DNA of 64,000 nt from Giardia intestinalis (taxonomy: Eukaryota): assembly GCA_000002435.2 (NCBI GenBank), contig CM018791.1. The stretch is one strand, 5' to 3'. Both the position numbers and the translations under genes were made by a program. The notes under the pieces were generated by a model. The model made no database searches and had not been told where the DNA came from. It saw only the letters and a list, made by a program, of their open reading frames with translations. This document shows positions 14,245 to 54,553 of the stretch, piece by piece (the stretch's first letter is position 1; the number at the start of each line of letters is the position of its first letter).

Positions 14245-14251
14245 ACTAAGA
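14245..14251 (+). terminator. AGTGAAT polyadenylation-signal-like motif (Giardia AGTRAAY) about 20 nt after the V-ATPase A stop.
   Basis: taagctctttccAGTGAATttactaag. The identical motif follows the stop of the 6343..9780 gene at 9797..9803. Confidence 0.4.
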
Positions 14252-14277
14252 GTTCGGGTATCGGTAAATCCATATGG

Positions 14278-20793: not shown

Positions 20794-20836
20794 CGTAACT
20801 AGCCACCAAAAAGCAAAGGCGTTCACAGCAAAGGTA

Positions 20837-36655: not shown

Positions 36656-36701
36656 AAAGTAATGTATAGATATTTGGTTACAGTTTTATCTGAAACTGTC
36701 C

Positions 36702-37295
36702 ATGACACCCGATGGCGAGGAAAAAGCCACTAAAGATCAAAAACCGTCTCCGCTTTGCTTAAGCAGCGATGTCTTTGTAACATTTGAGTACACGGTTAGC
36801 GGGGAGGAGCCCAGCCAACCCTGCTACACAAAGAACTCCAACCATGCTTTTTCTACCTCTCAGGATACAATAGGAGAGCTAATTGCAGATACTGTGCTTG
36901 TCAGGGGTATGCCACTTGCATCAGGAAGAATGCTAAAACAGATCCTATTGAGCTGTGTTTCTGCTATCGTTTCAGCGGACGATTATCCCGCATCCATTAG
37001 GCAAAGTCTTGTCAAGCACATCAGTGATGCTAGTGTCTCCAGTCAGGTGATTAGGAGGCGTTACATTACCTACGGTAGGGAGCATCAGAACATATTGAAA
37101 GGTCTTCTTCATAGCGCCGTGGCCTGCAGTGTCTCATATAACTTAACGACTGATCCAGCTGTGCTTTCACACATGGTAACCTACATGAACGCGCTTCTAC
37201 CCACTGGAGAGATAAAGACCATAGTCTGTGGGATCTCCAAATTTGATGAAAACGCACCTGGGTCTATGCTTAAATCCGCCTTTTTTCGTCTCTAG
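36702..37295 (+). CDS. Hypothetical protein (197 aa).
   Basis: ORF bounded by neighbouring genes. No motif recognised. Confidence 0.35.
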   Translation: MTPDGEEKATKDQKPSPLCLSSDVFVTFEYTVSGEEPSQPCYTKNSNHAFSTSQDTIGELIADTVLVRGMPLASGRMLKQILLSCVSAIVSADDYPASIRQSLVKHISDASVSSQVIRRRYITYGREHQNILKGLLHSAVACSVSYNLTTDPAVLSHMVTYMNALLPTGEIKTIVCGISKFDENAPGSMLKSAFFRL

Positions 37296-37378
37296 GAGTT
37301 GATGCCAACAATGAGCTATGTAGGATATTATCCAATAAGCTTGTCAGTATTACAACAAACCTTACAGTAAGCGCTACA

Positions 37379-38584
37379 ATGAAACCCAGTAAGTTCTGTG
37401 ATGAGATTGCTCGCGCCTTGCGTGATTTATCGAGCAACCGAGAAATCTTGTACATGGGCTGCTTAATGCAATGGCAGAACAAGGCATTTACCATCCTCTA
37501 TGAACAGCATTTCTCTGATGTCATAGAAGTAGTCCACAAGTTGACCATGAAGATTCTGAATATGTCTGTTTCAATGAAAGAGCAGTTTCGGTCTTTCTTG
37601 GCCCAGTATGAACTTAGTGTTAAGGGCCCTTCTGTTACTGATGAATCTATCGGGTCTGATGCTTCAGGCGCTGAACCGGCTTCCAGGAAGACTTTATCAA
37701 AAGTGGATACTGAAGCAGGGCTTCGCCCCGCGTTGCGAGTGTATAGTACTGTACGTTGGACGTACTTATACATATGTATTCTCAACTTTTATGAAAATCT
37801 AGAGCGGCTCATAGCGTTCATAAGTCGGTGCCCGAATACAACCTCTGTTCTTTCAAAGCATCTTGCTACACAGCTTATTAACCTTACCTGGATTCGGCGA
37901 TTGGCGTTCCTTGCAGATATCTTCCAGCTCTGTAGGGGCCTCCGACTCCTAATGGAAGGGCCACGTATTGTACCGGGGCACGCGCTGCTGGAGATGGGCG
38001 GGCTCCGGGACGCGCTGCAGACGGTGCTCGCCGAGCTCCGGGCCGGGGTCTGGACCCGCCTCCCCCGGCTGGGTGCGCGCCTTCGGGATGGGGCCGCACT
38101 CCCTGACGAGGAGAGGAGGTCCCTTGCGGGCGCCCTGGAGGCCTTTGTCGCCGAGCTCGATGCGTGCTTGTCGGCGTACCGGCAGTGCCTTCCGCTTCTC
38201 CGGCTGACGGTGTCCCCCGTGTGTGCCCCGGCAGCGGGAGGAGCGGCGCCTCCGGAGCCATTCCCGGTTCCAGGGGTGGACCGGGACGGGTTTACCGCGG
38301 AGTATCGGGGCTTCAGCGGCGGAGAACGCGGAGACGCGCACCGGCGTTGCCTGGAAAGAATTCGCGGCATGACGTGCAACGCGGCCCGCTGGAACGCACT
38401 AGTGACCTTCTGGGCGGACCAGAGGGCAGCGTATCCGCAGACCAGCCGGGCCGCGCTCGGGCTCCTGACGGTACTCGCGACCGTCTGTGCCTCCGAAGTA
38501 TCCTCCTCCGCGCTCAAGCGGGCCCTGAGCCGGGGAGCAGGCGCCGTGCTCCTTGCGCGCCTCGACGCGCGCGTGGGCGAGTAA
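37379..38584 (+). CDS. Hypothetical 401-aa ORF that is compositionally chimeric. The N-terminal ~200 aa are AT-normal. The C-terminal ~200 aa (from 37979) are about 80% GC, Ala/Leu/Arg-rich, and lie inside the inverted repeat.
   Basis: Uninterrupted frame across the composition jump. The GC-rich half reads as a plausible helical protein (HALLEMGGLRDALQTVLAELRAGVWTRLPRLGARLRDGAALPDEERRSLAGALEAFVAELDACLSAYRQ...). Confidence 0.35.
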   Translation: MKPSKFCDEIARALRDLSSNREILYMGCLMQWQNKAFTILYEQHFSDVIEVVHKLTMKILNMSVSMKEQFRSFLAQYELSVKGPSVTDESIGSDASGAEPASRKTLSKVDTEAGLRPALRVYSTVRWTYLYICILNFYENLERLIAFISRCPNTTSVLSKHLATQLINLTWIRRLAFLADIFQLCRGLRLLMEGPRIVPGHALLEMGGLRDALQTVLAELRAGVWTRLPRLGARLRDGAALPDEERRSLAGALEAFVAELDACLSAYRQCLPLLRLTVSPVCAPAAGGAAPPEPFPVPGVDRDGFTAEYRGFSGGERGDAHRRCLERIRGMTCNAARWNALVTFWADQRAAYPQTSRAALGLLTVLATVCASEVSSSALKRALSRGAGAVLLARLDARVGE

Positions 38585-38595
38585 AGCAGGGAAAG

Positions 38596-38668
38596 TACCG
38601 ACGACGGGGCTCGAACCCGCGACCACAGGATTAAGAGTCCTGCGCTCTACCGACTGAGCTACATCGGC
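38596..38668 (-). tRNA. tRNA-Lys (anticodon CTT), left inverted-repeat copy.
   Basis: Reverse complement of the cloverleaf GCCGATG-TA-GCTC-AGTCGGTA-GAGC-G-CAGGA-CTCTTAA-TCCTG-TGGTC-GCGGG-TTCGAGC-CCCGT-CGTCGGT-A. It has a GTTCGAG T-loop, and the A/B-box positions are conserved. Confidence 0.8.
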
Positions 38669-38732
38669 GCGACCGCACGCAGAATATCAGAATGACTTGT
38701 AATTTTGCTAGCAGTGTGTTGGTATTTGATCA

Positions 38733-41159
38733 ATGGCCGTTCTGCCGTCCGGCTACACGTACCTCCAGACCCTCGAGGACGGCGTCCTTCGCAAGCTCTA
38801 TACGGCCGCCCGGCACGATGGCGTCTCCTGCCTTTGTGAGGAGGTCTTTGTTGGACCTCCCCCTGCGCCTTCTGCCTCTTCGCTTCGCGCCTGTCCTGCC
38901 CTGATCGCTCGCCTCGATTCGCCCTTCCTTGGAAAATACATTCTTGTCCAGCCAGATAATCAGCGCAGGTCTGTCTTTCTTCTTTCCCAGCATGTCCAGG
39001 ATTTCTCTCTCTTCACTCTCTTTACGGCCCACACAGGCTCGCGACCATACACTCCAGAGGATGATATATGGCAAATTTTATATGGCGCACTTCAAGGACT
39101 GGCCTATCTTCATAGCCCTTTGGCAAAGCCTGTTCTTGTTCACGGTGCAATTTCACCCACCTCGGTCTATGTGTCTAGAGATGGAGCTGGGCTTTTGCGG
39201 TCACTGTGGAGCGTTCGAGAAAGTGGATCCCCCTTTACGGGCGACGCATACTCACCCCTCACCCCATACGTAGCCCCCGAGGTCCTGAAATCTCAGGCCA
39301 TAACTACCAAGGCAGACGTTTGGGCTCTTGGTTGTATAATTTATGAACTATGTGTGCAAAAGCAACTCTTTGCTGCGGCTAGCGAAGAAGAGATGGTCGC
39401 GCGTATCCTCACACCCGTGTCTGTCACCTTGCCGCCACAGTACTCGCGCGACTTAGTGACCGTTCTTCGCGCCATGCTTGAACAAGACCCGTTCCAACGG
39501 CCAGGAGCTGTTGTTCTTCTCGGACACCCTCGCTTCGAGCACTTCGATAATTCCCTCCCTGAGGATCACGAGGCTACCGCTGACTGCAAAGATCCTACCC
39601 TTTCTCGTGTCAACACAGTGCTAGCAGACAGCACAATGTCCTTTAGTTCCGTTGGCAGCTCTGTGGCCCCACTTCTTCCCGAATCTAATAGCCCCCTTTC
39701 CCAGGCAATTGCCGCCGGCAACAAGACTGCATTTACGAAGGCGCTAGGGGCATGGAAAGGGAAAGCAGACTCGAACGGCTACTCCAGCCTAATGTACGCC
39801 ATAGTCTATCAGAATACACCGATGGCTAAGCTTCTATTGAAATCGGATGCAGGGCTCCAGGACCGCACTGGCCGAAGCGCACTTATGTACGCATCTTCCT
39901 ATGACAAACTTGAACTCGTTCAAGAACTGATCCGGCGCGAGGGACGCCTTCGCGACAGGGCTGGGCGAACGGCGCTAATGCATGCAGCAGCGTCTGACTC
40001 CTTGCTGTCTATACGAGCCCTCATTCCCCTCGAAGCAGGGCTTGCCGATAATGAAGGCTCAACTGCCTTGATGATCGCCATTAAGAGCGGCGCATATCGT
40101 GCCGTGAGCATGCTTTATATTCAGGAAGCCAGATATCAATCTATGCTGGGAAAGACCGCCCTTATGCTTGCTGCACAACTTGATTGCGGCGTAGCCATCA
40201 ATCTGCTTGCAGAGGAGGAGACATACCTTGAGGACTCGTATGGGATGACTGCATCCCAATATGCCGAGCTGGCTGGTAACCAAGTTGGCGAGCTAGCACT
40301 TCGAGAACATGATCAAACCATAGTAACCGGGAAAACAGTTGCGGGGAGGCTGAGCTCTCTTCCTAAGCTGGGAATCAAAGGCGGGGCCCTGACCCTCGAG
40401 GAACGAGAACGCGTCAATATGCTGTCGGGATCACTTCCCAGAGATGAGCAAGGCAATACGTCGTTAATGCTGGCTATTCTGGAAGGCGATCGAATCTCTG
40501 CCGAAAGCTATCTTCCGAGCCAGATGGGCTTTAGAAATGCTGATTCAGAAACAGCCCTTATGCTTTGCGCAAAGAAGAATCTATCTGGTATCGCTGCTCT
40601 TCTCCTTGCTGCAGAGTCGGGACTGCGCGTTGGGCTTAGCTCTTCTGTGCCCAAGGAGCGAGTTGGCATGACTGCGCTCATGCATGCAGCAGAAGCAAAT
40701 GCAGTAGAGGTGTGCAAGGTCCTTTTGACAGCAGAGGCCGGGTCAGTGCGAAAGGACGGCAAGACGGCCCTTATTCTTGCCGCTATGGCTGACGCAAAAG
40801 ACGCTGCCCTTGTCTTGGGAGCTTGTGATAAAGAGGCAGGCCAGCATGACACAAACGGCTTCACAGCTCTGATGGGGGCTGTGCAGCATAGAAATGTAGA
40901 TCTTGCCAAGCTTCTATTGAAGAAAGAAGCCGGCTTTCAGAAAAACGACGGCACTGCTGCGATACACATTGCAGTGTTTCTCGAAGATGTCGCCTTGGTA
41001 AAGCTGCTCTTTTCTTATGAAAAGGACTTGCAGCTAGCAGACGGCAGAACTGCCCAGACGATTGCAATTGCTCTTAACAATCCTGCATTGCAGGCTGTCT
41101 TCGATGAACCCACAAAGAAGCGCTCCAAAAGCCGGGCACAAGGGAGCGCCAAGCGATAG
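38733..41159 (+). CDS. NEK-like kinase domain fused to about 14 ankyrin repeats (a Giardia 'Kinase, NEK' / 21.1-type protein). It is a predicted pseudokinase. This is the left inverted-repeat copy.
   Basis: Kinase fold with HGAISPTSVYVSRDGAGLL replacing HRDLKPxN...DFG, APEVL and DVWALGCIIYEL. 'TALM' ankyrin repeats follow (SALMYAS, TALMHAA, TALMIAI, TALMLAA, TALMLCA, TALMHAAEA, TALILAA, TALMGAV). Confidence 0.85.
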   Translation: MAVLPSGYTYLQTLEDGVLRKLYTAARHDGVSCLCEEVFVGPPPAPSASSLRACPALIARLDSPFLGKYILVQPDNQRRSVFLLSQHVQDFSLFTLFTAHTGSRPYTPEDDIWQILYGALQGLAYLHSPLAKPVLVHGAISPTSVYVSRDGAGLLRSLWSVRESGSPFTGDAYSPLTPYVAPEVLKSQAITTKADVWALGCIIYELCVQKQLFAAASEEEMVARILTPVSVTLPPQYSRDLVTVLRAMLEQDPFQRPGAVVLLGHPRFEHFDNSLPEDHEATADCKDPTLSRVNTVLADSTMSFSSVGSSVAPLLPESNSPLSQAIAAGNKTAFTKALGAWKGKADSNGYSSLMYAIVYQNTPMAKLLLKSDAGLQDRTGRSALMYASSYDKLELVQELIRREGRLRDRAGRTALMHAAASDSLLSIRALIPLEAGLADNEGSTALMIAIKSGAYRAVSMLYIQEARYQSMLGKTALMLAAQLDCGVAINLLAEEETYLEDSYGMTASQYAELAGNQVGELALREHDQTIVTGKTVAGRLSSLPKLGIKGGALTLEERERVNMLSGSLPRDEQGNTSLMLAILEGDRISAESYLPSQMGFRNADSETALMLCAKKNLSGIAALLLAAESGLRVGLSSSVPKERVGMTALMHAAEANAVEVCKVLLTAEAGSVRKDGKTALILAAMADAKDAALVLGACDKEAGQHDTNGFTALMGAVQHRNVDLAKLLLKKEAGFQKNDGTAAIHIAVFLEDVALVKLLFSYEKDLQLADGRTAQTIAIALNNPALQAVFDEPTKKRSKSRAQGSAKR

Positions 41160-43097
41160 CCGAATTGCAGCCTCACAGAATGTGACACACTGGCCTGTGG
41201 TTACTAGCTTTGGGAGGCCTGGCCTATGGGCTTCAATTGCCATACTTATCCACCAAGAATGAACACTGCGAAGGTGCCTACTCATTATTTGACAATTCAG
41301 GTTTTACACATGTTTCCTTGTGCATTATTGGGAGGAAGCATGAAAAATCCACATTCTTCGAAGGTAAAGCTCCTGTCCCCTACATCTATTTTCTAATAAA
41401 GCATTCAACTGCACAGACTAAGTGCTGCAGCTATCTCATGGTATTGAAAACCGTATATACAGGCTTTATCCTCAGACCTGCTAGAGTTGATTGGGGGGCC
41501 ATTAGCCTACTAATTTGACATGAACAGAAGGAGTAATGTGCCTATTCGGTCGACATTGAGGGTTAAACCACACCAATGACTGACTATGTGCCACACGGAT
41601 CACTCCCAGTAAGCATTTGTTACAAACTAGAGAGTCCTGCACGGTCAATTTACAGCACATCTTTCCATCATAACCTTCAAAGTAGGCGTCCATTCTGTTA
41701 TCACATAGCCTGTTGAGCCATGAGTGACACCTGCAACGTTTCTGCTTAACAGATTAAATGTTCTAAGCTTGTTCTTTGAATAATAAGTATAGCTGTCCCG
41801 TATTATTTACACAGAGGTGAAGACACGATACACTTATGCGCCAGGATCGCATTAAATTAGACCTTGATTGATAGCTATATATTCTACTGATTGCTCGCGC
41901 TCTTGGATTGCAGAATGAATAAAAGGTAGCTAGATTGCATGCATTACTATTGTAGAGTAAGTTATTTTAGGACGGATCCTGCAATCCTACTGGTGTCCAT
42001 CTCCCTAGATATCTGCATCTGGAGAGGACTGTTTCCTGGCTGCCTGTGACAAGCATAAAGGAAACGTGTCTTGAAGAAAAGCACATTCACAGGGTCGTAT
42101 ATTAATGCGGCTCAGCATGTCCATCAAGATTGGCATCGGATGGACTTCTGACAGCTGAGTACAGGAGTGCCTAGTTGCGCAAACTGTGGACCCGCAGTTC
42201 CTAAGCATACTAAGTAGCATCTCTTCAGTTCTGTGGCCTAAGTCAAGCGTTCTGCAGATAGACTCCTAAGTTAATGTGCTTCTGGCTATGATTTTCAGCT
42301 CTGGAGGTTCTGTCCCGTCCGCAGACTACTACTTCTAGATACAGTCTTTCTGCATCGGGAGTGAGGGGCTCTGTGGCCTCTTACTCTCCCTTCATACAAA
42401 TACAGACAGGTCCTTGCAGAAGAGACCCAGAGCTCTTGTAGCATTTACGCTGTGGCTACGCACCGTACCTCCCCACGCTTCTCTCGGATACTCACGGCGG
42501 CTGTATCCCTGGTTGTCCACGCTACGTTGCCCCACATGAGAAGTCCATTAGCGAAGCGCTTGTGGTCACCGAAGCTGCCTGCTCAATATCGGTTAGCGGC
42601 CTTCACCGGTATTTCACGTCCACATATGCAAGGGGCACCTGCGTCTCAGCGCCGTCCCTCAGGCACTGTAGCAGGCGAGGTCTGACTTCGCTGCATTGGC
42701 GGTTTCGTGATATGCATCCAGCTACCCGATGTTTGGCAATGGTCTGTGCCAATTCCTGAGCAACTGGTAACAAATCCTTACCTGTTTAGAGTCATACCTG
42801 TGAAGGGTGTCCCTTACATCACGGAAGACCCTAGCCGCCGGTCGACGCTCGGCGCCAGATGCCTCCTGCGGGCCACGAGGAGCGAATCTGCATGGGTCTT
42901 CCCACATGCTGCTAGCGCCGGGCCGCCCGCCCATTGCGCGCATGACCAACGCCTCGGCGCCAGACCCGCAACGCAGGAGGAGTGTGTGTTCATTCACTCT
43001 TTGCAAACGAGCAAGATATTCAGATCCAGCCCCAACAATTCTTAAGTAATGAGCTGCGACGTCTAAGCTACAGCCGTATTCAATGATTTACAGAAAA

Positions 43098-46000
43098 TTA
43101 GAGCTGAACCATGGATGGTTGTCTGGAACCATTTAGTAGAGGTGCAGTAGAGTACATAGACGCAGTAAGACTAGAATTGCGAGTGAGTTGCGGCTTAGGA
43201 AGCCCGCGACCAGGCTTCCGCGGGGCACGCTCCCTCAGTACACCGCTCTTCCTGGGCCGTATCACGAACCACCAGACGAGGAAGCCGGCCACCGCAGCGA
43301 GGACGAGGAGAACGACGACCACGATCGCAGCTGTTGTGCCGGCAGACGATTTGTTAGATGGAGCAGGGACTCCGCAGACGAAGTCGCTTGTGAGAGAGAA
43401 GCCTTCATCGCATATGCAAGTGGGCTTTACGCCGTTCTCAGACACGCACCTGCCGTTGCCCCCGCAGATCGTCACGGTGCCGTCGGTGCCGCGCTGGATG
43501 CACTGGCTGCTGATGCAGAGCCCCTCGGAGACGGTCTCGTAGCCGCTTCTGCAGCTGCACAAGCCCCCGTCGGAGAGCTGGCAGTCGCCGTTCCCCCCGC
43601 ACAGCGTTCCACTGGAAACGCAGGCCGATGGGTAGCAGAGGGTCCCGTGGAGGGTCCAGCCTTGTCTGCAGCTGCAGATCGCAGAGGACCCTTCACCAGT
43701 ACACTCTCCTCCGCCGTTGCAGACTTTCCCGTCCTTGAGACACCTTGTGGGGATGCAATCAGTCTTGACCAGAGTATAGTCTTTTGCACACAGGCAGCCG
43801 TAGGTGTCGCCGGTCTTCTCGCAGGCGCCGAAGCCGCTACAAAGCTTGTTGTCTGACGAGACGCAGCTGCTATGCACACAACCATTTTGACCAGGGAGGT
43901 TCTTAAAATTGGGGGCCTGGCAGTTGCATGTTCCTGTGTCACCGGTCTCCGTGCACGTCCCACCACCATCACAAACTTCTGAAAGAATGCTCTCGTGCGC
44001 CCCGAAGCACTCCTTGACGAAGCACTGGCCGGTCTTCTTGTCTGTACGGTACCTGCTGTTGTCGCACCTGCACATTCCTGTACCAGTGGTGGCTTCAACG
44101 CATGTTCCACGGTTATTACATATCTTAGTAATGTCATCAGCGTGATCTCTCGGCATGCATTCTCTATATACGCAGACACTTGATCCAATGAGAATTGTTC
44201 CAGAATTGCAACTACATTCCCCAGTGGCCTCGCCGTTGTCATTGCACGTACCCATACCATAGCACGTTTTTTCTGTCTGATCGTATGGATCCGTCCAGAC
44301 GCACCTGGACTTCCGGCACTTCTTGCTAGCACTGTCAACGACGAAGCTCGAGTTGACGCAGACGCAGTTGAAGCTACTGCCACCAAACTGACAAGTTCCT
44401 GCATCAGTATTTTCTTCCATACTACAGCTATCTTTTGGACAGTTGCTAAGATAACATCGCTTATCTGTGTGTTCCAGGTACCCATCATTGCAAGCCTTGC
44501 ATTGAGGACCTTCGTACCCAGGGTAGCACTTACATGTCTTTTCTTCTATAGAGCAAGTTCCCCTTCCGCTGCATATCATGGTTGTGTCTGTCTCCGAGAC
44601 AGCACATACCTCCGGGATACACACATAATTTCCTAATATGCCTTTGACTGTTTTGTAGCCAGACTCACAGCTGCAAGAATATTCTACGGTATGATCCCCC
44701 TTGCATGTTCCGTGACCAGAACACTCGACATTCCTGAAGGTGTTTCCAGGCAGGACGTCACTGAGACACACTCTCTTGATGCACTTTTTATTCTCCAGCT
44801 GGACAATGTCAGATCGCTCTATACACTTGCAGTAGGGTTCGGATGACTGAGTGGTATTCAGAATGCACATTCCAAACTGTCTTCCGCCGCATGTAGTATT
44901 CATTTTGGTGTTATCTAGTTTTGTAATCTCAAATATGCAAGCCTTTGGCAGACAGAACCCATCAAGTTCTTCGTACCCGTCAGGCCTCGGGTCCTTGCAC
45001 TTACAAGCGTAGTCTCGACGATCGCCGTGCGACGCTATCTTTGTGCACACACCAATCGTGTCACCGCCACATACGGATTCAGTGAGCCTTCCGTTACTGT
45101 CTGTAGCATTGATGAAGCAATTGAGACCAACACAGACCTTATCCACCAACTTGGTCCCTAGATTGCATATGCATCCATCAGGTCCACACCTACCCGCGCC
45201 TCCACAGATCACCGGTACGTCCTTGTCTTTACTAGAAATACACTTTTCTAGCACGCATGTCTTCCTCAGCTCGCCGCTTGCGTCTCTAAGTGTATACGCA
45301 TTCGCACCATTAGTACACGTGCATTGCTTGTCCTTCAATAAACCGTTGGCACTGCATGTTCCCAGCCCGTTACACTCTATGGCGGCGTCGTTCGCAGACG
45401 CCCTATACATGCACTTGCTCGGGACACACGTGTCTCTATTTCCATCTTGATTTCTTTTATCACTCAGTTCGTAGCCCTCGGAGCAGACGCAGCCGTAGCG
45501 GTTATCATCTCCCTTCACGCACGAAGCCAAAGAGTCACCTCCGCAATACTTATCCCCAGACATGCAGCTTTGGTGAACGCAAAGCCCATTAAAAGACTTG
45601 TATGAAAAAGCACACTTGCACGAGTACGTGTTTCCATTAGAATCTTGTGTGCAACTCCCAACGGTGCCGTCGTAGACCTTGCATTCGACGTACTTAAGTT
45701 CTCCATTGTGGATCACCTTTCCGGCGCACCCGGGGTGAGTGCAGTAACCACCAAAGGCCTCAAAACCATCCTTACACTCACATCCATATCGGCCGGTCAG
45801 CTGGTTGTACGCGCAGACTCCCTTCCCAGAGCAGACGTGGCGATCTAACGTTAGCTTCCTTGCATCGGCTGCCGTCACGCCCACAGGCAGGCAGTCGTAG
45901 CTGTAGCACATGTCACCGATCCTCAGGAAGCCCGGGTTGCAGGTGCAGGACTCATTTTCGTTTATGTAGCCAGCTCCGGGGCCGCCGCATAGACCTCTTG

Positions 46001-48179
46001 CTAGCTTAGTCTGTGGATTCGCATTCTTGCTTTTTAAAATGCACGTCTTGTTGTATGTAACATAGTCCCCAGTGCAATTACACTGCCACGTCGTGTCCCG
46101 GCCGACGGTGCAGTGGAGTTCGTGACTGCCCAGCGCAGCGCAGTACTTAGGTGCTCCTGGGCCGGCGAGCTTTTTATCAAGCTTGCACGCATTGGTGACG
46201 CACGCCTTTAAACTTTGGTCCCACGTAGCATCTGGACCGCAATCGCATTCATATCCTTCGTTACCATCCTTCTTTTTGACACAGTCTCCCACACCACCAC
46301 AGTAATTGTACCACATATGATAAATAGATCTACCGTCGTGACAGTCGGTATGCATGCAGGTTGCATTGTTTTCCCCAAAGTGTACAAGATGAAAGCCAGT
46401 TGGGCACACAGTGCACGTTTCAGGTAGATTGGAGCCTTCAGAAGGCTTAGCACAGGTTGGCATTCGATCGTCCTGAAGACTATCTGTCAGCCCCTCTAGG
46501 AACCCACAAAAGAACCTTCTTGTCTTATCTATCTTACTGATAAATACACATCCAGGTTTAGCAGAGAAGGTGCCGTTGTAGGCTGAAACGTTCCCATCAC
46601 TGGAGCCTTTAGGGACGCATGTGATGAACGGATTGCTAGGATCTCCATAAGTGGTGTACGTGCCTGTGTTCCCGCAGATATCCTGAGCAGTAGCCGTGCG
46701 CAGACTGGGCTGTGGATCCGGTGGTTGTTGTTGCACAATGCACTTCTTTGCAATGCATTTCTTGTCAATCACTTGCGCATTTTGTTGATTACATTCTGCG
46801 CACTTAGCTCCTGTGTAGATAGGCGAACACTGGCACGTCATCGTATAAGGAGCCTCAGCACTAACGACAATGCGTCCATGATCACTGCAAACCGTGGCAG
46901 GGATATCCACCAGACTGCTCAAGATGCAGCGCCCTGGAGCGATGTAGGTATAGTCCTGATCACAAGTGCATTGTATATTTCGTAGATCGTCCGTCTTGCA
47001 CGTGCCGTGCCCCGAGCAGACCTTCCCAAGTTCCTCGTCCATGCACGCGGGGGACGTGCACTCTCCGTCAACGGCAATGAGCATGTCCGGGCAGCGGCAG
47101 TGGTACTCGCCATCGAACTTGACACATGTTCCTCCGTTCTTGCATGATTCTCGCTTGTCTGAGGTGAGGCATCCCACTGGAACGCACTTGCCATTTATCT
47201 TAGCAGACTTGTCAGTGCAAGTATCGCAGAGGTCGCCCGTGGCAAGTCCCCGGCAATCGCACTTATAGCCAGCGCCGTCACGCACACAGGCGCCCACTCC
47301 GCCACAGATCTTCGAGTTGGAGCTATCGGTGCAGGTCGGATGCGTGCAGAACTCACCAACCTGGACTGCATTAGAATCGCAAACACACCTGAAGGTGCCG
47401 GTATTTCCCTCATCTGTGCAGTTCCCAAAGCCCCCGCAGACGACCGGGGACCCGTCGATCGTGGCCACGCACTCTGTCCTGACGCACTTGTGTCCAACGC
47501 GTGTATATCCCGTCTCACAGGCACAACGGTAGTGGTATGATTCGCGATTGAGGCCTACGTCGAGGACACAGTTACCATGTCCTGAGCACACAGTGCCGTC
47601 AGGATCCTGGCAAGCCCGTGGGTTACAAGTGGGGAGATTGTCCTGTGAGGGAGTCTTAGCATCAATTGCGTTGGCGTCGTCGCACGACTGGCAGAGACTC
47701 CCGCGGTAGATCGGGTAGCAGTCGCACGCGTAGTCGTCAGCACTCAGCCCGGCCAGCCCGGGGTCCTTCAGGAGGCAGCGGCCGCGGCCGTTGCAGGGAG
47801 GCTTCGTTGCCTCCTGTCCTGAGAGGTCACCGGTGTTGAAGCAGCTCTTCGGCAGGCACTCGCCCTCGTAGGACACGAAGCCATCGGGGCAGGGGTCGCA
47901 CGAGTACGCCCCCGCGTAGTAGGTGCACTTGTTCGACTCTGTGCACTCCGTCCCGTTCACGAGGCAAGCGTAGTTGACGGCCCTGTCTGCGGGTGTCTGC
48001 CCACTGGTAGTTACCCTGCGGAACCCTGCACGGGGAGCATCGCACGCAGCCCCCGCCCAGCCCCGCCTGCACTGGCAGAAGTATGCTCCGTCCCCGTAGG
48101 TGCAATTTCCGTGGACGCACTCGGGGCCTGTTCCGCATGCACTGGCGAGGAATGCAATAGCATACAGGAGAATCAGCAT
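43098..48179 (-). CDS. High-cysteine membrane protein (HCMP), 1693 aa. It has a signal peptide, a long EGF/VSP-like CXXC-CXC-rich ectodomain, a single C-terminal TM helix and a 45-aa cytoplasmic tail. It lacks the VSP CRGKA terminus.
   Basis: N-terminus MLILLYAIAFLASACG. Hundreds of Cys in GxCxC, CxxC and CxCxxGY patterns. C-terminus AIVVVVLLVLAAVAGFLVWWFVIRPRK. The initiator ctttaaaatcactgtATG lies on the minus strand, and TGTAAAT follows about 8 nt after the stop. Confidence 0.85.
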   Translation of the reverse strand: MLILLYAIAFLASACGTGPECVHGNCTYGDGAYFCQCRRGWAGAACDAPRAGFRRVTTSGQTPADRAVNYACLVNGTECTESNKCTYYAGAYSCDPCPDGFVSYEGECLPKSCFNTGDLSGQEATKPPCNGRGRCLLKDPGLAGLSADDYACDCYPIYRGSLCQSCDDANAIDAKTPSQDNLPTCNPRACQDPDGTVCSGHGNCVLDVGLNRESYHYRCACETGYTRVGHKCVRTECVATIDGSPVVCGGFGNCTDEGNTGTFRCVCDSNAVQVGEFCTHPTCTDSSNSKICGGVGACVRDGAGYKCDCRGLATGDLCDTCTDKSAKINGKCVPVGCLTSDKRESCKNGGTCVKFDGEYHCRCPDMLIAVDGECTSPACMDEELGKVCSGHGTCKTDDLRNIQCTCDQDYTYIAPGRCILSSLVDIPATVCSDHGRIVVSAEAPYTMTCQCSPIYTGAKCAECNQQNAQVIDKKCIAKKCIVQQQPPDPQPSLRTATAQDICGNTGTYTTYGDPSNPFITCVPKGSSDGNVSAYNGTFSAKPGCVFISKIDKTRRFFCGFLEGLTDSLQDDRMPTCAKPSEGSNLPETCTVCPTGFHLVHFGENNATCMHTDCHDGRSIYHMWYNYCGGVGDCVKKKDGNEGYECDCGPDATWDQSLKACVTNACKLDKKLAGPGAPKYCAALGSHELHCTVGRDTTWQCNCTGDYVTYNKTCILKSKNANPQTKLARGLCGGPGAGYINENESCTCNPGFLRIGDMCYSYDCLPVGVTAADARKLTLDRHVCSGKGVCAYNQLTGRYGCECKDGFEAFGGYCTHPGCAGKVIHNGELKYVECKVYDGTVGSCTQDSNGNTYSCKCAFSYKSFNGLCVHQSCMSGDKYCGGDSLASCVKGDDNRYGCVCSEGYELSDKRNQDGNRDTCVPSKCMYRASANDAAIECNGLGTCSANGLLKDKQCTCTNGANAYTLRDASGELRKTCVLEKCISSKDKDVPVICGGAGRCGPDGCICNLGTKLVDKVCVGLNCFINATDSNGRLTESVCGGDTIGVCTKIASHGDRRDYACKCKDPRPDGYEELDGFCLPKACIFEITKLDNTKMNTTCGGRQFGMCILNTTQSSEPYCKCIERSDIVQLENKKCIKRVCLSDVLPGNTFRNVECSGHGTCKGDHTVEYSCSCESGYKTVKGILGNYVCIPEVCAVSETDTTMICSGRGTCSIEEKTCKCYPGYEGPQCKACNDGYLEHTDKRCYLSNCPKDSCSMEENTDAGTCQFGGSSFNCVCVNSSFVVDSASKKCRKSRCVWTDPYDQTEKTCYGMGTCNDNGEATGECSCNSGTILIGSSVCVYRECMPRDHADDITKICNNRGTCVEATTGTGMCRCDNSRYRTDKKTGQCFVKECFGAHESILSEVCDGGGTCTETGDTGTCNCQAPNFKNLPGQNGCVHSSCVSSDNKLCSGFGACEKTGDTYGCLCAKDYTLVKTDCIPTRCLKDGKVCNGGGECTGEGSSAICSCRQGWTLHGTLCYPSACVSSGTLCGGNGDCQLSDGGLCSCRSGYETVSEGLCISSQCIQRGTDGTVTICGGNGRCVSENGVKPTCICDEGFSLTSDFVCGVPAPSNKSSAGTTAAIVVVVLLVLAAVAGFLVWWFVIRPRKSGVLRERAPRKPGRGLPKPQLTRNSSLTASMYSTAPLLNGSRQPSMVQL

Positions 48180-48767
48180 ACAGTGATTTTAAAGATGGCT
48201 CCGGGTTATTATGTGCTAGCATACCATGAATATAAGAAGGAAACTTGTAAGTTTGTCATTTACAAACGAAAGTATACTGTTTCTGAGCTGTCCTCAGATG
48301 CTGCGTATAGCAGGATTAAATCGATACGTCACAAGGTTGTAGTTATTTACACGTCTTTTAAATATTGCTTCATTTCAACGAGGCGTTGCTTCAGTCTTCG
48401 TAGACATAGAGCACTATATGGTTGCACTCTTGATACTGAAGGCTAAAAGCGCTGAATTTCGAGGATTGCTCAGACTGATGAAGTAGATTGACACGAGTAC
48501 CAGGTCATTGTAACGTCGATAGCTATTGCCGTCATGCAAGGAGACGTTATGTCACGAAAAGGCCACGACTCAGATATTCTCGGTAGAGTAAAGAATTGCT
48601 CTTACAAATGAAGAATAAGAGGCGTGAAGGGACAGACAGTGGAGCAGAGTACAAAACGAAAAGGCAAGCTAATTGCTTTCTTTTAGTGGCGTATACATCC
48701 ATGAGACAGACCTCGCGGGCCCATTGCAGTCGATCTCCGTGATCAACGGGAGAGTCTGTGGCCCTTG
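48180..48767 (-). promoter_or_regulatory. Unique 588-bp upstream region of the HCMP gene, lying between the gene and the right inverted-repeat arm. It contains the AT-rich initiator immediately 5' of the ATG.
   Basis: gccatctttaaaatcactgtATG (minus-strand reading) at 48180-48200. No ORF reaches 60 aa except a spurious plus-strand one. Confidence 0.5.
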
Positions 48768-50578
48768 TGCGGGTCTGGCGCCGAGGCGTTGGTCATGCGC
48801 GCAATGGGCGGGCGGCCCGGCGCTAGCAGCATGTGGGAAGACCCATGCAGATTCGCTCCTCGTGGCCCGCAGGAGGCATCTGGCGCCGAGCGTCGACCGG
48901 CGGCTAGGGTCTTCCGTGATGTAAGGGACACCCTTCACAGGTATGACTCTAAACAGGTAAGGATTTGTTACCAGTTGCTCAGGAATTGGCACAGACCATT
49001 GCCAAACATCGGGTAGCTGGATGCATATCACGAAACCGCCAATGCAGCGAAGTCAGACCTCGCCTGCTACAGTGCCTGAGGGACGGCGCTGAGACGCAGG
49101 TGCCCCTTGCATATGTGGACGTGAAATACCGGTGAAGGCCGCTAACCGATATTGAGCAGGCAGCTTCGGTGACCACAAGCGCTTCGCTAATGGACTTCTC
49201 ATGTGGGGCAACGTAGCGTGGACAACCAGGGATACAGCCGCCGTGAGTATCCGAGAGAAGCGTGGGGAGGTACGGTGCGTAGCCACAGCGTAAATGCTAC
49301 AAGAGCTCTGGGTCTCTTCTGCAAGGACCTGTCTGTATTTGTATGAAGGGAGAGTAAGAGGCCACAGAGCCCCTCACTCCCGATGCAGAAAGACTGTATC
49401 TAGAAGTAGTAGTCTGCGGACGGGACAGAACCTCCAGAGCTGAAAATCATAGCCAGAAGCACATTAACTTAGGAGTCTATCTGCAGAACGCTTGACTTAG
49501 GCCACAGAACTGAAGAGATGCTACTTAGTATGCTTAGGAACTGCGGGTCCACAGTTTGCGCAACTAGGCACTCCTGTACTCAGCTGTCAGAAGTCCATCC
49601 GATGCCAATCTTGATGGACATGCTGAGCCGCATTAATATACGACCCTGTGAATGTGCTTTTCTTCAAGACACGTTTCCTTTATGCTTGTCACAGGCAGCC
49701 AGGAAACAGTCCTCTCCAGATGCAGATATCTAGGGAGATGGACACCAGTAGGATTGCAGGATCCGTCCTAAAATAACTTACTCTACAATAGTAATGCATG
49801 CAATCTAGCTACCTTTTATTCATTCTGCAATCCAAGAGCGCGAGCAATCAGTAGAATATATAGCTATCAATCAAGGTCTAATTTAATGCGATCCTGGCGC
49901 ATAAGTGTATCGTGTCTTCACCTCTGTGTAAATAATACGGGACAGCTATACTTATTATTCAAAGAACAAGCTTAGAACATTTAATCTGTTAAGCAGAAAC
50001 GTTGCAGGTGTCACTCATGGCTCAACAGGCTATGTGATAACAGAATGGACGCCTACTTTGAAGGTTATGATGGAAAGATGTGCTGTAAATTGACCGTGCA
50101 GGACTCTCTAGTTTGTAACAAATGCTTACTGGGAGTGATCCGTGTGGCACATAGTCAGTCATTGGTGTGGTTTAACCCTCAATGTCGACCGAATAGGCAC
50201 ATTACTCCTTCTGTTCATGTCAAATTAGTAGGCTAATGGCCCCCCAATCAACTCTAGCAGGTCTGAGGATAAAGCCTGTATATACGGTTTTCAATACCAT
50301 GAGATAGCTGCAGCACTTAGTCTGTGCAGTTGAATGCTTTATTAGAAAATAGATGTAGGGGACAGGAGCTTTACCTTCGAAGAATGTGGATTTTTCATGC
50401 TTCCTCCCAATAATGCACAAGGAAACATGTGTAAAACCTGAATTGTCAAATAATGAGTAGGCACCTTCGCAGTGTTCATTCTTGGTGGATAAGTATGGCA
50501 ATTGAAGCCCATAGGCCAGGCCTCCCAAAGCTAGTAACCACAGGCCAGTGTGTCACATTCTGTGAGGCTGCAATTCGG

Positions 50579-53005
50579 CTATCGCTTGGCGCTCCCTTGT
50601 GCCCGGCTTTTGGAGCGCTTCTTTGTGGGTTCATCGAAGACAGCCTGCAATGCAGGATTGTTAAGAGCAATTGCAATCGTCTGGGCAGTTCTGCCGTCTG
50701 CTAGCTGCAAGTCCTTTTCATAAGAAAAGAGCAGCTTTACCAAGGCGACATCTTCGAGAAACACTGCAATGTGTATCGCAGCAGTGCCGTCGTTTTTCTG
50801 AAAGCCGGCTTCTTTCTTCAATAGAAGCTTGGCAAGATCTACATTTCTATGCTGCACAGCCCCCATCAGAGCTGTGAAGCCGTTTGTGTCATGCTGGCCT
50901 GCCTCTTTATCACAAGCTCCCAAGACAAGGGCAGCGTCTTTTGCGTCAGCCATAGCGGCAAGAATAAGGGCCGTCTTGCCGTCCTTTCGCACTGACCCGG
51001 CCTCTGCTGTCAAAAGGACCTTGCACACCTCTACTGCATTTGCTTCTGCTGCATGCATGAGCGCAGTCATGCCAACTCGCTCCTTGGGCACAGAAGAGCT
51101 AAGCCCAACGCGCAGTCCCGACTCTGCAGCAAGGAGAAGAGCAGCGATACCAGATAGATTCTTCTTTGCGCAAAGCATAAGGGCTGTTTCTGAATCAGCA
51201 TTTCTAAAGCCCATCTGGCTCGGAAGATAGCTTTCGGCAGAGATTCGATCGCCTTCCAGAATAGCCAGCATTAACGACGTATTGCCTTGCTCATCTCTGG
51301 GAAGTGATCCCGACAGCATATTGACGCGTTCTCGTTCCTCGAGGGTCAGGGCCCCGCCTTTGATTCCCAGCTTAGGAAGAGAGCTCAGCCTCCCCGCAAC
51401 TGTTTTCCCGGTTACTATGGTTTGATCATGTTCTCGAAGTGCTAGCTCGCCAACTTGGTTACCAGCCAGCTCGGCATATTGGGATGCAGTCATCCCATAC
51501 GAGTCCTCAAGGTATGTCTCCTCCTCTGCAAGCAGATTGATGGCTACGCCGCAATCAAGTTGTGCAGCAAGCATAAGGGCGGTCTTTCCCAGCATAGATT
51601 GATATCTGGCTTCCTGAATATAAAGCATGCTCACGGCACGATATGCGCCGCTCTTAATGGCGATCATCAAGGCAGTTGAGCCTTCATTATCGGCAAGCCC
51701 TGCTTCGAGGGGAATGAGGGCTCGTATAGACAGCAAGGAGTCAGACGCTGCTGCATGCATTAGCGCCGTTCGCCCAGCCCTGTCGCGAAGGCGTCCCTCG
51801 CGCCGGATCAGTTCTTGAACGAGTTCAAGTTTGTCATAGGAAGATGCGTACATAAGTGCGCTTCGGCCAGTGCGGTCCTGGAGCCCTGCATCCGATTTCA
51901 ATAGAAGCTTAGCCATCGGTGTATTCTGATAGACTATGGCGTACATTAGGCTGGAGTAGCCGTTCGAGTCTGCTTTCCCTTTCCATGCCCCTAGCGCCTT
52001 CGTAAATGCAGTCTTGTTGCCGGCGGCAATTGCCTGGGAAAGGGGGCTATTAGATTCGGGAAGAAGTGGGGCCACAGAGCTGCCAACGGAACTAAAGGAC
52101 ATTGTGCTGTCTGCTAGCACTGTGTTGACACGAGAAAGGGTAGGATCTTTGCAGTCAGCGGTAGCCTCGTGATCCTCAGGGAGGGAATTATCGAAGTGCT
52201 CGAAGCGAGGGTGTCCGAGAAGAACAACAGCTCCTGGCCGTTGGAACGGGTCTTGTTCAAGCATGGCGCGAAGAACGGTCACTAAGTCGCGCGAGTACTG
52301 TGGCGGCAAGGTGACAGACACGGGTGTGAGGATACGCGCGACCATCTCTTCTTCGCTAGCCGCAGCAAAGAGTTGCTTTTGCACACATAGTTCATAAATT
52401 ATACAACCAAGAGCCCAAACGTCTGCCTTGGTAGTTATGGCCTGAGATTTCAGGACCTCGGGGGCTACGTATGGGGTGAGGGGTGAGTATGCGTCGCCCG
52501 TAAAGGGGGATCCACTTTCTCGAACGCTCCACAGTGACCGCAAAAGCCCAGCTCCATCTCTAGACACATAGACCGAGGTGGGTGAAATTGCACCGTGAAC
52601 AAGAACAGGCTTTGCCAAAGGGCTATGAAGATAGGCCAGTCCTTGAAGTGCGCCATATAAAATTTGCCATATATCATCCTCTGGAGTGTATGGTCGCGAG
52701 CCTGTGTGGGCCGTAAAGAGAGTGAAGAGAGAGAAATCCTGGACATGCTGGGAAAGAAGAAAGACAGACCTGCGCTGATTATCTGGCTGGACAAGAATGT
52801 ATTTTCCAAGGAAGGGCGAATCGAGGCGAGCGATCAGGGCAGGACAGGCGCGAAGCGAAGAGGCAGAAGGCGCAGGGGGAGGTCCAACAAAGACCTCCTC
52901 ACAAAGGCAGGAGACGCCATCGTGCCGGGCGGCCGTATAGAGCTTGCGAAGGACGCCGTCCTCGAGGGTCTGGAGGTACGTGTAGCCGGACGGCAGAACG
53001 GCCAT
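50579..53005 (-). CDS. NEK-like pseudokinase/ankyrin protein, right inverted-repeat copy. Its 808-aa translation is identical to 38733..41159.
   Basis: The ORF track gives an identical protein sequence. Confidence 0.85.
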   Translation of the reverse strand: MAVLPSGYTYLQTLEDGVLRKLYTAARHDGVSCLCEEVFVGPPPAPSASSLRACPALIARLDSPFLGKYILVQPDNQRRSVFLLSQHVQDFSLFTLFTAHTGSRPYTPEDDIWQILYGALQGLAYLHSPLAKPVLVHGAISPTSVYVSRDGAGLLRSLWSVRESGSPFTGDAYSPLTPYVAPEVLKSQAITTKADVWALGCIIYELCVQKQLFAAASEEEMVARILTPVSVTLPPQYSRDLVTVLRAMLEQDPFQRPGAVVLLGHPRFEHFDNSLPEDHEATADCKDPTLSRVNTVLADSTMSFSSVGSSVAPLLPESNSPLSQAIAAGNKTAFTKALGAWKGKADSNGYSSLMYAIVYQNTPMAKLLLKSDAGLQDRTGRSALMYASSYDKLELVQELIRREGRLRDRAGRTALMHAAASDSLLSIRALIPLEAGLADNEGSTALMIAIKSGAYRAVSMLYIQEARYQSMLGKTALMLAAQLDCGVAINLLAEEETYLEDSYGMTASQYAELAGNQVGELALREHDQTIVTGKTVAGRLSSLPKLGIKGGALTLEERERVNMLSGSLPRDEQGNTSLMLAILEGDRISAESYLPSQMGFRNADSETALMLCAKKNLSGIAALLLAAESGLRVGLSSSVPKERVGMTALMHAAEANAVEVCKVLLTAEAGSVRKDGKTALILAAMADAKDAALVLGACDKEAGQHDTNGFTALMGAVQHRNVDLAKLLLKKEAGFQKNDGTAAIHIAVFLEDVALVKLLFSYEKDLQLADGRTAQTIAIALNNPALQAVFDEPTKKRSKSRAQGSAKR

Positions 53006-53069
53006 TGATCAAATACCAACACACTGCTAGCAAAATTACAAGTCATTCTGATATTCTGCGTGCGGTCGC

Positions 53070-53142
53070 GCCGATGTAGCTCAGTCGGTAGAGCGCAGGA
53101 CTCTTAATCCTGTGGTCGCGGGTTCGAGCCCCGTCGTCGGTA
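53070..53142 (+). tRNA. tRNA-Lys (anticodon CTT), right inverted-repeat copy.
   Basis: gccgatgtagctcagtcggtagagcgcaggactcttaatcctgtggtcgcgggttcgagccccgtcgtcggta folds as a 73-nt cloverleaf. Acceptor stem 7 bp with G-U pairs, D-stem GCTC/GAGC, anticodon stem CAGGA/TCCTG, loop CTCTTAA, T-stem GCGGG/CCCGT. Confidence 0.8.
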
Positions 53143-53153
53143 CTTTCCCTGCT

Positions 53154-53798
53154 TTACTCGCCCACGCGCGCGTCGAGGCGCGCAAGGAGCACGGCGCCTG
53201 CTCCCCGGCTCAGGGCCCGCTTGAGCGCGGAGGAGGATACTTCGGAGGCACAGACGGTCGCGAGTACCGTCAGGAGCCCGAGCGCGGCCCGGCTGGTCTG
53301 CGGATACGCTGCCCTCTGGTCCGCCCAGAAGGTCACTAGTGCGTTCCAGCGGGCCGCGTTGCACGTCATGCCGCGAATTCTTTCCAGGCAACGCCGGTGC
53401 GCGTCTCCGCGTTCTCCGCCGCTGAAGCCCCGATACTCCGCGGTAAACCCGTCCCGGTCCACCCCTGGAACCGGGAATGGCTCCGGAGGCGCCGCTCCTC
53501 CCGCTGCCGGGGCACACACGGGGGACACCGTCAGCCGGAGAAGCGGAAGGCACTGCCGGTACGCCGACAAGCACGCATCGAGCTCGGCGACAAAGGCCTC
53601 CAGGGCGCCCGCAAGGGACCTCCTCTCCTCGTCAGGGAGTGCGGCCCCATCCCGAAGGCGCGCACCCAGCCGGGGGAGGCGGGTCCAGACCCCGGCCCGG
53701 AGCTCGGCGAGCACCGTCTGCAGCGCGTCCCGGAGCCCGCCCATCTCCAGCAGCGCGTGCCCCCTGTGTGCAATGGGCAACATCGTAAGGTGCAACAT
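53154..53798 (-). CDS. Truncated copy of the GC-rich C-terminal half of the 37379..38584 ORF. The frame reopens only 12 codons outside the repeat (MLHLTMLPIAHRG), so it is probably a non-functional remnant.
   Basis: Identical to the GC-rich segment from HALLEMGG to ...ARVGE. The N-terminal half found on the left side is absent here. Confidence 0.3.
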   Translation of the reverse strand: MLHLTMLPIAHRGHALLEMGGLRDALQTVLAELRAGVWTRLPRLGARLRDGAALPDEERRSLAGALEAFVAELDACLSAYRQCLPLLRLTVSPVCAPAAGGAAPPEPFPVPGVDRDGFTAEYRGFSGGERGDAHRRCLERIRGMTCNAARWNALVTFWADQRAAYPQTSRAALGLLTVLATVCASEVSSSALKRALSRGAGAVLLARLDARVGE

Positions 53799-53810
53799 AT
53801 CACCGTTTAC

Positions 53811-54527
53811 TTATGCACGAAGCGCTTGCCGCATTTCTTCAGTTAATCGACCAGTTCCCCGCGCTGTCTGAGCGAGAGCCATGCGGCCGTACTTCTCCAT
53901 TTCATAAGGAGCCAGCATCGCCACAGATCCTGCATGTCCACCATAGGATGCATGTACAAGCGCAGACCACCCATTTAGGTCTTTAAGAGTGCGTTCTTTC
54001 GACAGCAGCAATCGAACGCACTCTGTCCGCCCGTACCGTGCAGCCTGCATGAGCGCCGTTTCACCTTTAACGTCAAATATGGCACCTTCTAAGTCTCGAA
54101 GCTCCCGCACAGCCGCAGCCTGTCCATCTATGGCTGCCCGCATGAGAGCTGTTTGCAGGGACAAGGTCTGAATTCCTCCTTCTTTGGGCGCTAATAATTT
54201 GATGACAGGAACATGACCACGGGAAGCGGCGATCATCAAGGCAGATACGTTCCGCCAAGTGGCAGTGGAAAAGCGGTATGCAGGAACGACCTTCCGTGCT
54301 TCTGCAGGAATCAGCATCTCCACTATCGCCGAGTATCCCCGCTCCGCTGCATAGTGGATTGCGGCCATGCCATGCCTATTGACGCAGCCAGCCTCTTGAA
54401 GATGTTGTAGAACAGCTGCTGCGTTTCCCATCTGTGCAGCAGCTATTAGCGGTGTGTTGCCTTCATGGTCGCGATCAAGAGTCGCTAAGGAGTAGGCTGT
54501 GGTGCTTGAAAGTTGACTCAGAGGCAT
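53811..54527 (-). CDS. Ankyrin-repeat protein (21.1-like), 238 aa.
   Basis: Repeats NTPLIAAAQMGNAAAV, MAAIHYAAERGYSAIV, SALMIAASRGHVPVI, TALMRAAIDGQAAAV, TALMQAARYGRTECV, SALVHASYGGHAGSV. Confidence 0.65.
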   Translation of the reverse strand: MPLSQLSSTTAYSLATLDRDHEGNTPLIAAAQMGNAAAVLQHLQEAGCVNRHGMAAIHYAAERGYSAIVEMLIPAEARKVVPAYRFSTATWRNVSALMIAASRGHVPVIKLLAPKEGGIQTLSLQTALMRAAIDGQAAAVRELRDLEGAIFDVKGETALMQAARYGRTECVRLLLSKERTLKDLNGWSALVHASYGGHAGSVAMLAPYEMEKYGRMALAQTARGTGRLTEEMRQALRA

Positions 54528-54553
54528 TTATTTTTTAGCGGACAAAATTAGCG

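Follow-up and report, generated by a model that had tools for sequence, protein, structure and literature searches.

We analysed a 64,000-nt stretch of the genome of Giardia intestinalis WB (assembly GCA_000002435.2, contig CM018791.1), hereafter the window, and found that it contains a large palindrome. Two perfectly complementary arms of 4996 nt, each carrying a gene for a NEK kinase and a gene for tRNA-Lys(CTT), flank a unique centre occupied by a single gene for a high-cysteine membrane protein (HCMP). The palindrome occurs at the orthologous locus in diverged Giardia lineages, with arms that are identical within each genome and have diverged between genomes. We consider it likely that the palindrome is an old inverted segmental duplication whose arms are homogenised by recombination with each other, and whose centre flips with no consequence for expression.

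A perfect inverted repeat surrounds a single HCMP gene

A repeat finder reported one inverted pair, 37975–42970 and 48768–53763, as 100% complementary over 4996 nt, and direct comparison of one arm with the reverse complement of the other found 0 mismatches and 0 indels. The near-perfect 5-kb inverted repeat proposed in a preliminary description of this DNA is therefore real, with its left arm ending 1 nt away from the position given there. The WB arms are separated by a spacer of 5797 nt, so that two long inverted arms enclose unique sequence, as in other large palindromes. At all four arm junctions the flanking sequences diverge immediately, on the outer as well as the inner sides. There is no second repeat of at least 80 nt in the window; the palindrome is the sole one, and chance is therefore ruled out. 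The features of the arms and centre are as follows (gene identifiers 7183 and 112633 were taken from a published annotation transfer, that of the HCMP gene via a coordinate offset).

37975–42970, plus strand: left arm, 4996 nt, 0 mismatches against 48768–53763
48768–53763, minus strand: right arm, 4996 nt, mirror of the left arm
42971–48767, unstranded: unique centre, 5797 nt, one gene with 588 bp upstream and 127 bp downstream of it
38733–41159, plus strand: left copy of the 808-aa NEK kinase gene GL50803_7183 (KAE8302677; Pkinase and Ank domains), transcribed towards the centre
50579–53005, minus strand: right copy of the 808-aa NEK kinase gene (KAE8302679; identical product, separately annotated), transcribed towards the centre
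38595–38668, minus strand: left tRNA-Lys(CTT) (ARAGORN; Rfam tRNA, 71.8 bits)
53070–53143, plus strand: right tRNA-Lys(CTT) (ARAGORN)
41160–42970 (mirror 48768–50578), unstranded: arm segment free of open reading frames (ORFs), evolving like non-coding DNA
43098–48179, minus strand: HCMP gene GL50803_112633, EGF-like, 1693 aa, exact match to KAE8302678/XP_001704627

Each arm consists of a GC-rich segment (~72% GC), the tRNA gene, the 808-aa Pkinase/ankyrin ORF and 1.8 kb of ORF-free DNA. The preliminary description had correctly listed the tRNA-Lys(CTT), the NEK-like/ankyrin gene and ~1.8 kb without ORFs, and had recognised the single 1693-aa cysteine-rich gene of the centre, which we place at 43098–48179 on the minus strand. 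It had also noted a GC-rich, coding-like island in each arm. An island of ~72% GC is indeed present, but it is really the C-terminal half of a 401-aa ORF, GL50803_22133, that crosses the arm border. The two NEK ORFs face each other at a distance of 9419 nt.

The ORF-free segment (41160–42970) contains no ORF of at least 150 aa. An Rfam scan of positions 36500–49000, covering the left arm and the centre, returned tRNA only, with no match to the left copy of the ORF-free segment, and a tandem-repeat scan of 36500–55000 returned a single weak 15-nt array within the HCMP gene. Inspection of the junction sequences for target-site duplications, terminal repeats and microhomology revealed nothing evident; the borders have drifted since the repeat was formed.

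Independent data contain the junctions of the palindrome

Both outer junctions are spanned by independent short-read contigs from Logan, the left one by L001–L003 and L007 and the right one by L011 and L012. Other contig ends coincide with the arm borders: L004, recovered as the same contig in 8 samples, starts precisely at the border, the inner border is where L007 and L008 terminate, and L013 breaks off after 30 nt (k-1) of arm sequence. At the inner end of the arm, the short-read contigs include both possible continuations. This pattern of contig breaks is the signature of a true two-copy repeat in a de Bruijn graph. In a nanopore/Illumina hybrid assembly (Pollo 2020; PMC7048089), GL50803_22133, 7183, 112633 and the paired small ORFs 127891/127892 match the window at one constant offset (utg53_pilon = window + 278494). 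Moreover, the 2007 Sanger annotation gave paired identifiers to the identical small ORFs and listed a 95-aa NEK fragment, GL50803_135970. The palindrome is thus not an assembly artefact. Each of its four junctions is seen or inferred in independent data, and its geometry recurs in a second long-read assembly, so that the suggestion of an assembly-collapse signature does not hold.

The palindrome is shared by diverged Giardia lineages

Synteny comparison with other assemblages recovered the palindrome in assemblage E and both of its outer junctions in A2 and B. In P15 (assemblage E), contig ACVC01000087 runs through the right flank, an arm, the HCMP gene and a second arm to the contig end. Its positions 13274–14259 and 20042–21023 are reverse complements over 986 bp, with 0 mismatches and two 1-nt gaps, and enclose a spacer of 5782 nt. 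On the P15 contig that carries the left flank, the terminal 205 bp match the outer end of the right arm of P15 with 100% identity. In A2-type strains, the same 8 substitutions relative to WB occur within the first 426 bp, whether a contig enters the arm from the left (L016, L017) or from the right (L021, DH). In assemblage B, a GS contig contains the right flank, the GC-rich segment, tRNA-Lys and NEK, and left-flank contigs from 5 samples start with 30–55 nt that are the exact reverse complement of GS L019:10924–10978. Because this GS segment adjoins the right flank and is followed by tRNA-Lys and NEK, both outer junctions exist in B as well.

The comparison of these sequences indicates that the palindrome is older than the split between assemblages A and E, and that it is probably older than the split from B. 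The repeat had been described beforehand as either very recent or homogenised by gene conversion. Homogenisation stands; recency does not, given that the repeat is orthologous in A1, A2, E and, at the outer junctions, B, with arms that are identical only within each genome. At its outer end the left arm runs on without a break into the left flank in WB as well as in P15, suggesting that the left copy occupies the ancestral context there.

The borders themselves differ slightly between lineages. The right arm of WB extends outwards by 31 bp more than that of P15, at the inner side the P15 arms reach 8–9 bp deeper into the centre than the WB arms, and the outer border in B lies ~185 bp further in. 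The differences between WB and P15, at the outer and inner borders alike, are such as recombination across the borders would produce.

The neighbourhood in assemblage B also differs in content. There, the arm starts ~100–130 bp from a gene of the EMP24 family (L025–L029, first 200 nt; L019:10718–11250), and the 197-aa GL50803_15769 and the N-terminal half of GL50803_22133, which in WB and P15 take up ~1.3 kb (window 36656–37974), are missing at that position. The GC-rich arm segment of B is ~70% alignable, with indels that break the frame. Two 5.4-kb Logan contigs (L030 from SRR17450158, L031 from ERR3333379), similar in size to the arm, contain a NEK orthologue with 73–76% DNA identity to A, E and B, and at this divergence they represent a further divergent Giardia lineage; their junctions were not recovered, and they are uninformative on the structure. 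G. muris is likewise uninformative: its best NEK match, at 40% identity, is not syntenic and shows no evident palindrome.

The two arms evolve in concert

Between WB and P15, identity within the arm is 88.9% for the NEK coding sequence and 69.7% for the ORF-free part, the latter value being indistinguishable from that of the unique non-coding DNA beside the HCMP gene (65–66%). By contrast, the arms match each other within WB and within P15: there are 0 differences in 4996 nt in WB and 0 mismatches in 986 and 205 nt in P15, and in both genomes the identity extends to the ORF-free segment. Independent evolution of the arms since the A/E split predicts ~1000 differences in WB, where we observed 0, and by the same arithmetic the last homogenisation falls within about the last 0.3% of the A–E divergence time. 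The NEK gene is under purifying selection (dN/dS of 0.127 between WB and P15), and tRNA-Lys is 100% conserved in P15 and GS. Selection nevertheless fails to explain the identity of the arms, because the unconstrained 1.8-kb segment is kept equally identical. These comparisons argue that the arms are in concerted evolution, for which gene conversion would be the obvious mechanism.

Giardia, especially sub-assemblage AI, has been argued to be effectively asexual, with almost no allelic heterozygosity. Searches of the Giardia literature on concerted evolution, inverted repeats and gene conversion found nothing on conversion between the arms of a repeat; the conversion that they did find is allelic and inter-sub-assemblage (PMC12669663).

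Base composition varies along the arm. The outer 600 bp (37975–38575, and mirrored in the right arm) have a GC content of 72% in WB and 69% in P15 (L018:9276–9876), the inner 500 bp (42471–42970, likewise mirrored) have 60% in WB and 56% in P15 (L018:13760–14259), and the non-coding middle has 44–46%. The GC-rich arm ends may be linked to conversion tracts that start or end at the borders.

Published long-read data suggest that the centre inverts

Raw structural-variant calls made from WB nanopore reads with ngmlr and Sniffles (supplement 6 of Pollo 2020; PMC7048089) include three inversion calls at this locus, which we converted to window coordinates. The mirror of a position x in the palindrome is 91738 - x.

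38492–53168, unstranded: inversion call #10, 21 reads; the mirror of 38492 is 53246, 78 nt off
39618–52140, unstranded: inversion call #11, 20 reads; the mirror of 39618 is 52120, 20 nt off
41627–50132, unstranded: inversion call #12, 14 reads; the mirror of 41627 is 50111, 21 nt off

The calls are nested, their breakpoints lie inside the arms, and each pair of breakpoints is mirror-symmetric within 20–80 bp. We interpret them as a sign that both orientations of the centre are present in the culture, because a read from the flipped isomer must switch strand at mirrored arm coordinates, whereas a read from the reference isomer is collinear. The calls, supported by 14–21 reads each, are imprecise and lie on a perfect repeat. 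The centre thus probably flip-flops, as judged from inversion-type split reads known only through the published raw calls. That homologous recombination between the arms could invert the centre, as the preliminary description had claimed, is accordingly plausible and gains support from the symmetry of the breakpoints. We found no discussion of the palindrome locus in the accessible part of the same paper. We also considered the paths of short-read contigs as evidence of orientation: L001–L003 lead from the left flank through the arm to the 5' side of the HCMP gene, opposite to the window, and L016 runs as in the window. These paths are uninformative, because both isomers share their junction k-mers and a path through a collapsed 5-kb repeat is arbitrary.

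Inversion is predicted to leave HCMP expression unchanged

The HCMP ORF, the 588 bp upstream of it and an AT-rich element, TTTAAAAT, directly upstream of its ATG all lie within the centre. We take this element to be a putative HCMP promoter, on the basis of general knowledge of Giardia initiators. On either side of the centre, the adjoining 5 kb are identical in either orientation. A flip thus carries the gene along with its initiator and places it between the same 5-kb sequences as before, so that the local context of the HCMP gene does not change and HCMP expression is most likely unaffected.

The extrusion of cruciforms and hairpins depends on the length of the spacer, and with a spacer of 5.8 kb it is unlikely on the basis of established knowledge. 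The HCMP ORF has Pfam matches of EGF type only, and GL50803_112633 is listed in the EGF-like subgroup of HCMp, which is described as a non-VSP family (PMC1762436). A link between the palindrome and surface variation, which the preliminary description had raised, is therefore not supported, given this classification and the unchanged context after a flip. Systems built for inversion use a dedicated recombinase and short sites, and reposition a promoter or swap coding segments. Here, no serine or tyrosine recombinase was found by Pfam in the eight ORFs scanned, the arms are 5 kb long, and the ORF remains together with its upstream sequence within the centre.

A mechanism for maintenance, and its alternatives

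The observations would fit the following course of events. An old inverted segmental duplication, that is, a large spacer-containing palindrome, would have arisen on what is now a 1.97-Mb record of WB, and frequent homologous recombination between its arms would keep them identical within each genome. Non-crossover events (gene conversion) would remove differences as they arise and shift the borders gradually, by tens of bases, and crossover events would invert the centre, such that a culture holds both orientations. With identical arms, and with the HCMP gene and its initiator wholly inside the centre, the inversion would be silent for expression. In practice, the NEK and tRNA genes would each be maintained in two copies, and the locus would be a hot spot of mitotic recombination.

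Perfect identity is also what an assembler would produce by copying one consensus, either by falsely duplicating a single-copy segment in inverted orientation or by collapsing or mis-joining a repeat, and short-read contigs do break at the borders. Such an error has a negligible probability, however, since independent contigs span both outer junctions and include both inner continuations, a separate nanopore and Illumina assembly has identical geometry, paired ORF identifiers and a second NEK fragment were already present in the 2007 annotation, and P15 shows the same layout. Scarcely more credible is that the WB lineage underwent the inverted duplication very recently, leaving the arms no time to diverge. 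Such an event would account for 0 differences in 4996 nt, and identical inverted vsp pairs in Giardia have been suggested to be possibly relatively recent (Adam 2010; PMC2996952). However, P15 has the same palindrome with borders within 10–30 bp and lineage-specific sequence in both arms, A2 and B strains have both outer junctions, and independent events at the same borders in three or four lineages are implausible.

The inversion itself is less secure than the age of the repeat. The palindrome could be ancient and homogenised and yet have a centre that does not flip appreciably, with the inversion calls being aligner artefacts of a perfect repeat: the calls are flagged IMPRECISE, fall into three clusters and have DR=0, 1D2 chemistry was part of the library, and the 256-bp sub-segments that ngmlr aligns are ambiguous within the arms. 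We regard this as unlikely, because a read from the reference isomer is fully collinear and needs no strand switch, and because all three breakpoint pairs, with 14–21 reads each, show the mirror symmetry that a flipped isomer predicts. A programmed switch, in which recombination between the arms turns the HCMP gene on or off or alters its product (phase or antigenic variation), is far less probable still. Inversion-type reads do exist, and the centre does contain a gene for a cysteine-rich surface protein; nonetheless, the centre contains the entire gene together with its start codon and the AT-rich element next to it, nothing changes within 5 kb on a flip, none of the eight ORFs scanned in or beside the repeat has a recombinase-like domain, the arms are not short recombination sites but 5-kb stretches of unconstrained DNA and ordinary genes, and the HCMp subgroup is described as non-VSP (PMC1762436).

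Several points weigh against an old, homogenised palindrome with a flipping centre. For P15, the recoverable part of the second arm amounts to only 986 bp and 205 bp, for B the evidence consists of just the 30–55 nt overlap and contig-break signatures, and a collapse of the two copies by short-read or 454 assemblers could hide a few differences between the arms. A test for GC-biased conversion gave no significant result, with weak-to-strong versus strong-to-weak substitutions (W>S:S>W) of 142:85 in the NEK gene of the arm and 240:188 in flanking genes (chi-square ~2.6, p ~0.1). The inversion rests on IMPRECISE calls of Sniffles v1 (GT 1/1, DR 0) from ngmlr alignments of 1D and 1D2 reads on a perfect repeat, such that a mapping artefact retains some probability. 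We suspect that the reference-read count of zero (DR 0) reflects a mapping-quality filter on repeat-mapped reads. Finally, no benefit of the palindrome to the cell has been demonstrated.

An ORF of apparent hAT origin crosses the outer border

The outer border of the left arm falls inside an ORF whose distal half is duplicated in the right arm.

37379–38584, plus strand: 401-aa ORF GL50803_22133, crossing the left outer border; its C-terminal half is the GC-rich arm segment
53154–53798, minus strand: 5'-truncated copy in the right arm, a 214-aa ORF with a fortuitous ATG 35 nt outside the arm and the same Pfam match

The truncated copy is not annotated in the reference, and an exact look-up traced it to Logan sources only. 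GL50803_22133 matches Pfam Dimer_Tnp_hAT over aa 341–385, with 24.1 bits against a cut-off of 21.4. Its sole remote homologue among 1.8 billion representatives (P0071) combines DUF4371 with a weak hAT dimerisation match. In a comparison with solved structures the best matches were to Hermes transposase, all non-significant, with a weak match in the region of the 'RW..y' motif. The ORF is thus apparently derived from a hAT transposase; to our knowledge, the transposons described in Giardia do not include hAT elements. With a dN/dS against P15 of 0.22 outside and 0.31 inside the arm, the ORF appears to be expressed or constrained in A and E. We considered hAT transposition as the origin of the duplication and rejected it: the border falls inside the ORF rather than at the end of an element, and no terminal repeats were seen.

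Neighbouring genes and related HCMP loci

Exact matches assign the window to clone C6 of WB, on a 1,973,847-bp record of the 2020 reference. The annotated gene order is KAE8302676 (hypothetical GL50803_0022133, 401 aa), the NEK, HCMP and NEK genes (KAE8302677 to KAE8302679) and KAE8302680 (ankyrin repeat protein 1). Pfam matches for the eight ORFs in or beside the repeat comprised a HECT ligase, the NEK kinases, ankyrin proteins, the EGF-like HCMP and one hAT-type protein, with one ORF giving no match. Neighbours called on related contigs include a phosphatase (Metallophos) and a protein of the EMP24 family.

The HCMP protein is 81.9% identical to its P15 orthologue (1690 aa). An exact look-up of the protein in the contig index returned no contig; its sequence is present in the protein collection. 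Many independent short-read contigs stop at 48310, 131 nt upstream of the HCMP start, and one stops at 43167, within the 3' end of the gene. These ends, at ~48310 and ~43167, suggest sequences held in common with paralogous EGF-like HCMP loci elsewhere in the genome. Two further EGF-like HCMp genes, 113531 and 114626, which lie outside the window, have identical transmembrane and C-terminal sequences (PMC1762436, Table 1) and may be another identical duplicated pair.

Discussion

The closest Giardia relatives of the palindrome are the identical inverted vsp pairs. In the two papers that describe them, vsp inverted pairs are cryptic, have 2–4 kb of non-coding DNA between them and are possibly relatively recent duplications (Adam 2010; PMC2996952), and there are 19 such pairs in a genome of which 6.9% is duplicated, with spacers that are tabulated as mostly empty or as containing reverse transcriptase (RT) remnants or one NEK (Xu 2020; PMC7000408). 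We did not find the palindrome locus in the accessible part of the latter, the reference-genome paper. The NEK copies share with the vsp pairs a host genome, two identical inverted copies (head-to-head or tail-to-tail), a kilobase-scale spacer, abrupt divergence of the flanks and breaks in short-read contigs. Unlike in the vsp pairs, however, the paired genes are NEK and tRNA-Lys, the cysteine-rich gene is single-copy and encodes an HCMP rather than a VSP, a complete HCMP gene makes up the 5.8-kb spacer, and the structure has been retained across assemblages with its arms homogenised.

Palindromes of the primate Y and X chromosomes are kept by gene conversion between arms, are conserved across species and have spacers that are inverted by crossover. 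The Giardia palindrome resembles them in its long arms and unique spacer, in an identity between arms that far exceeds that between orthologous arms, and in the retention of its structure across lineages. It differs from them in the size of its arms (5 kb, compared with 9 kb to 1.45 Mb), in having no tissue-specific gene family in the arms, in that GC-biased conversion is not detectable here, and in residing in a tetraploid, binucleate, largely asexual protist. The plastid inverted repeat forms flip-flop isomers, shows an 'ebb and flow' of its borders and typically has slowed substitution in its arms. Perfect, copy-corrected arms, possibly two orientation isomers and small border steps between lineages are features that the Giardia palindrome has in common with it; by contrast, the latter lies on a linear nuclear chromosome, and substitution in its arms is not slowed relative to single-copy DNA. 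As in bacterial invertons and shufflons, a segment is bounded by inverted repeats and possibly exists in two orientations. Unlike in those systems, the repeats measure 5 kb instead of tens of bp, the eight ORFs scanned gave no sign of a site-specific recombinase, and promoter and gene move together, so that there is no switch.

It is conceivable, though we hold the idea only tentatively and think it more apt to be wrong than right, that the locus exemplifies a general property of Giardia genomes, and that many identical inverted pairs, including those of vsp genes, are ancient palindromes that are kept perfect by very frequent mitotic recombination between their arms and flip continuously in culture. 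If so, they would be natural reporters of the rate of homologous recombination in a largely asexual tetraploid, and would explain much of the 'widespread intra-isolate inversions' that long reads have revealed.

For the locus described here, we find no support for a role in surface-antigen switching. A palindrome that is perfect despite 11–30% divergence between assemblages is, in our reading, direct evidence of frequent intrachromosomal recombination, and bears on how the four genome copies of Giardia are kept homogeneous and repaired. It also shows that 'identical duplicated genes' in this organism are not necessarily young, and it warns that inversion calls and contig breaks at such loci are to be read as biology rather than error. 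Arm identity, border drift and the ratio of orientations can all be read from long reads, which makes for a simple assay, and we see the main value of the palindrome as a natural reporter of mitotic recombination in Giardia.

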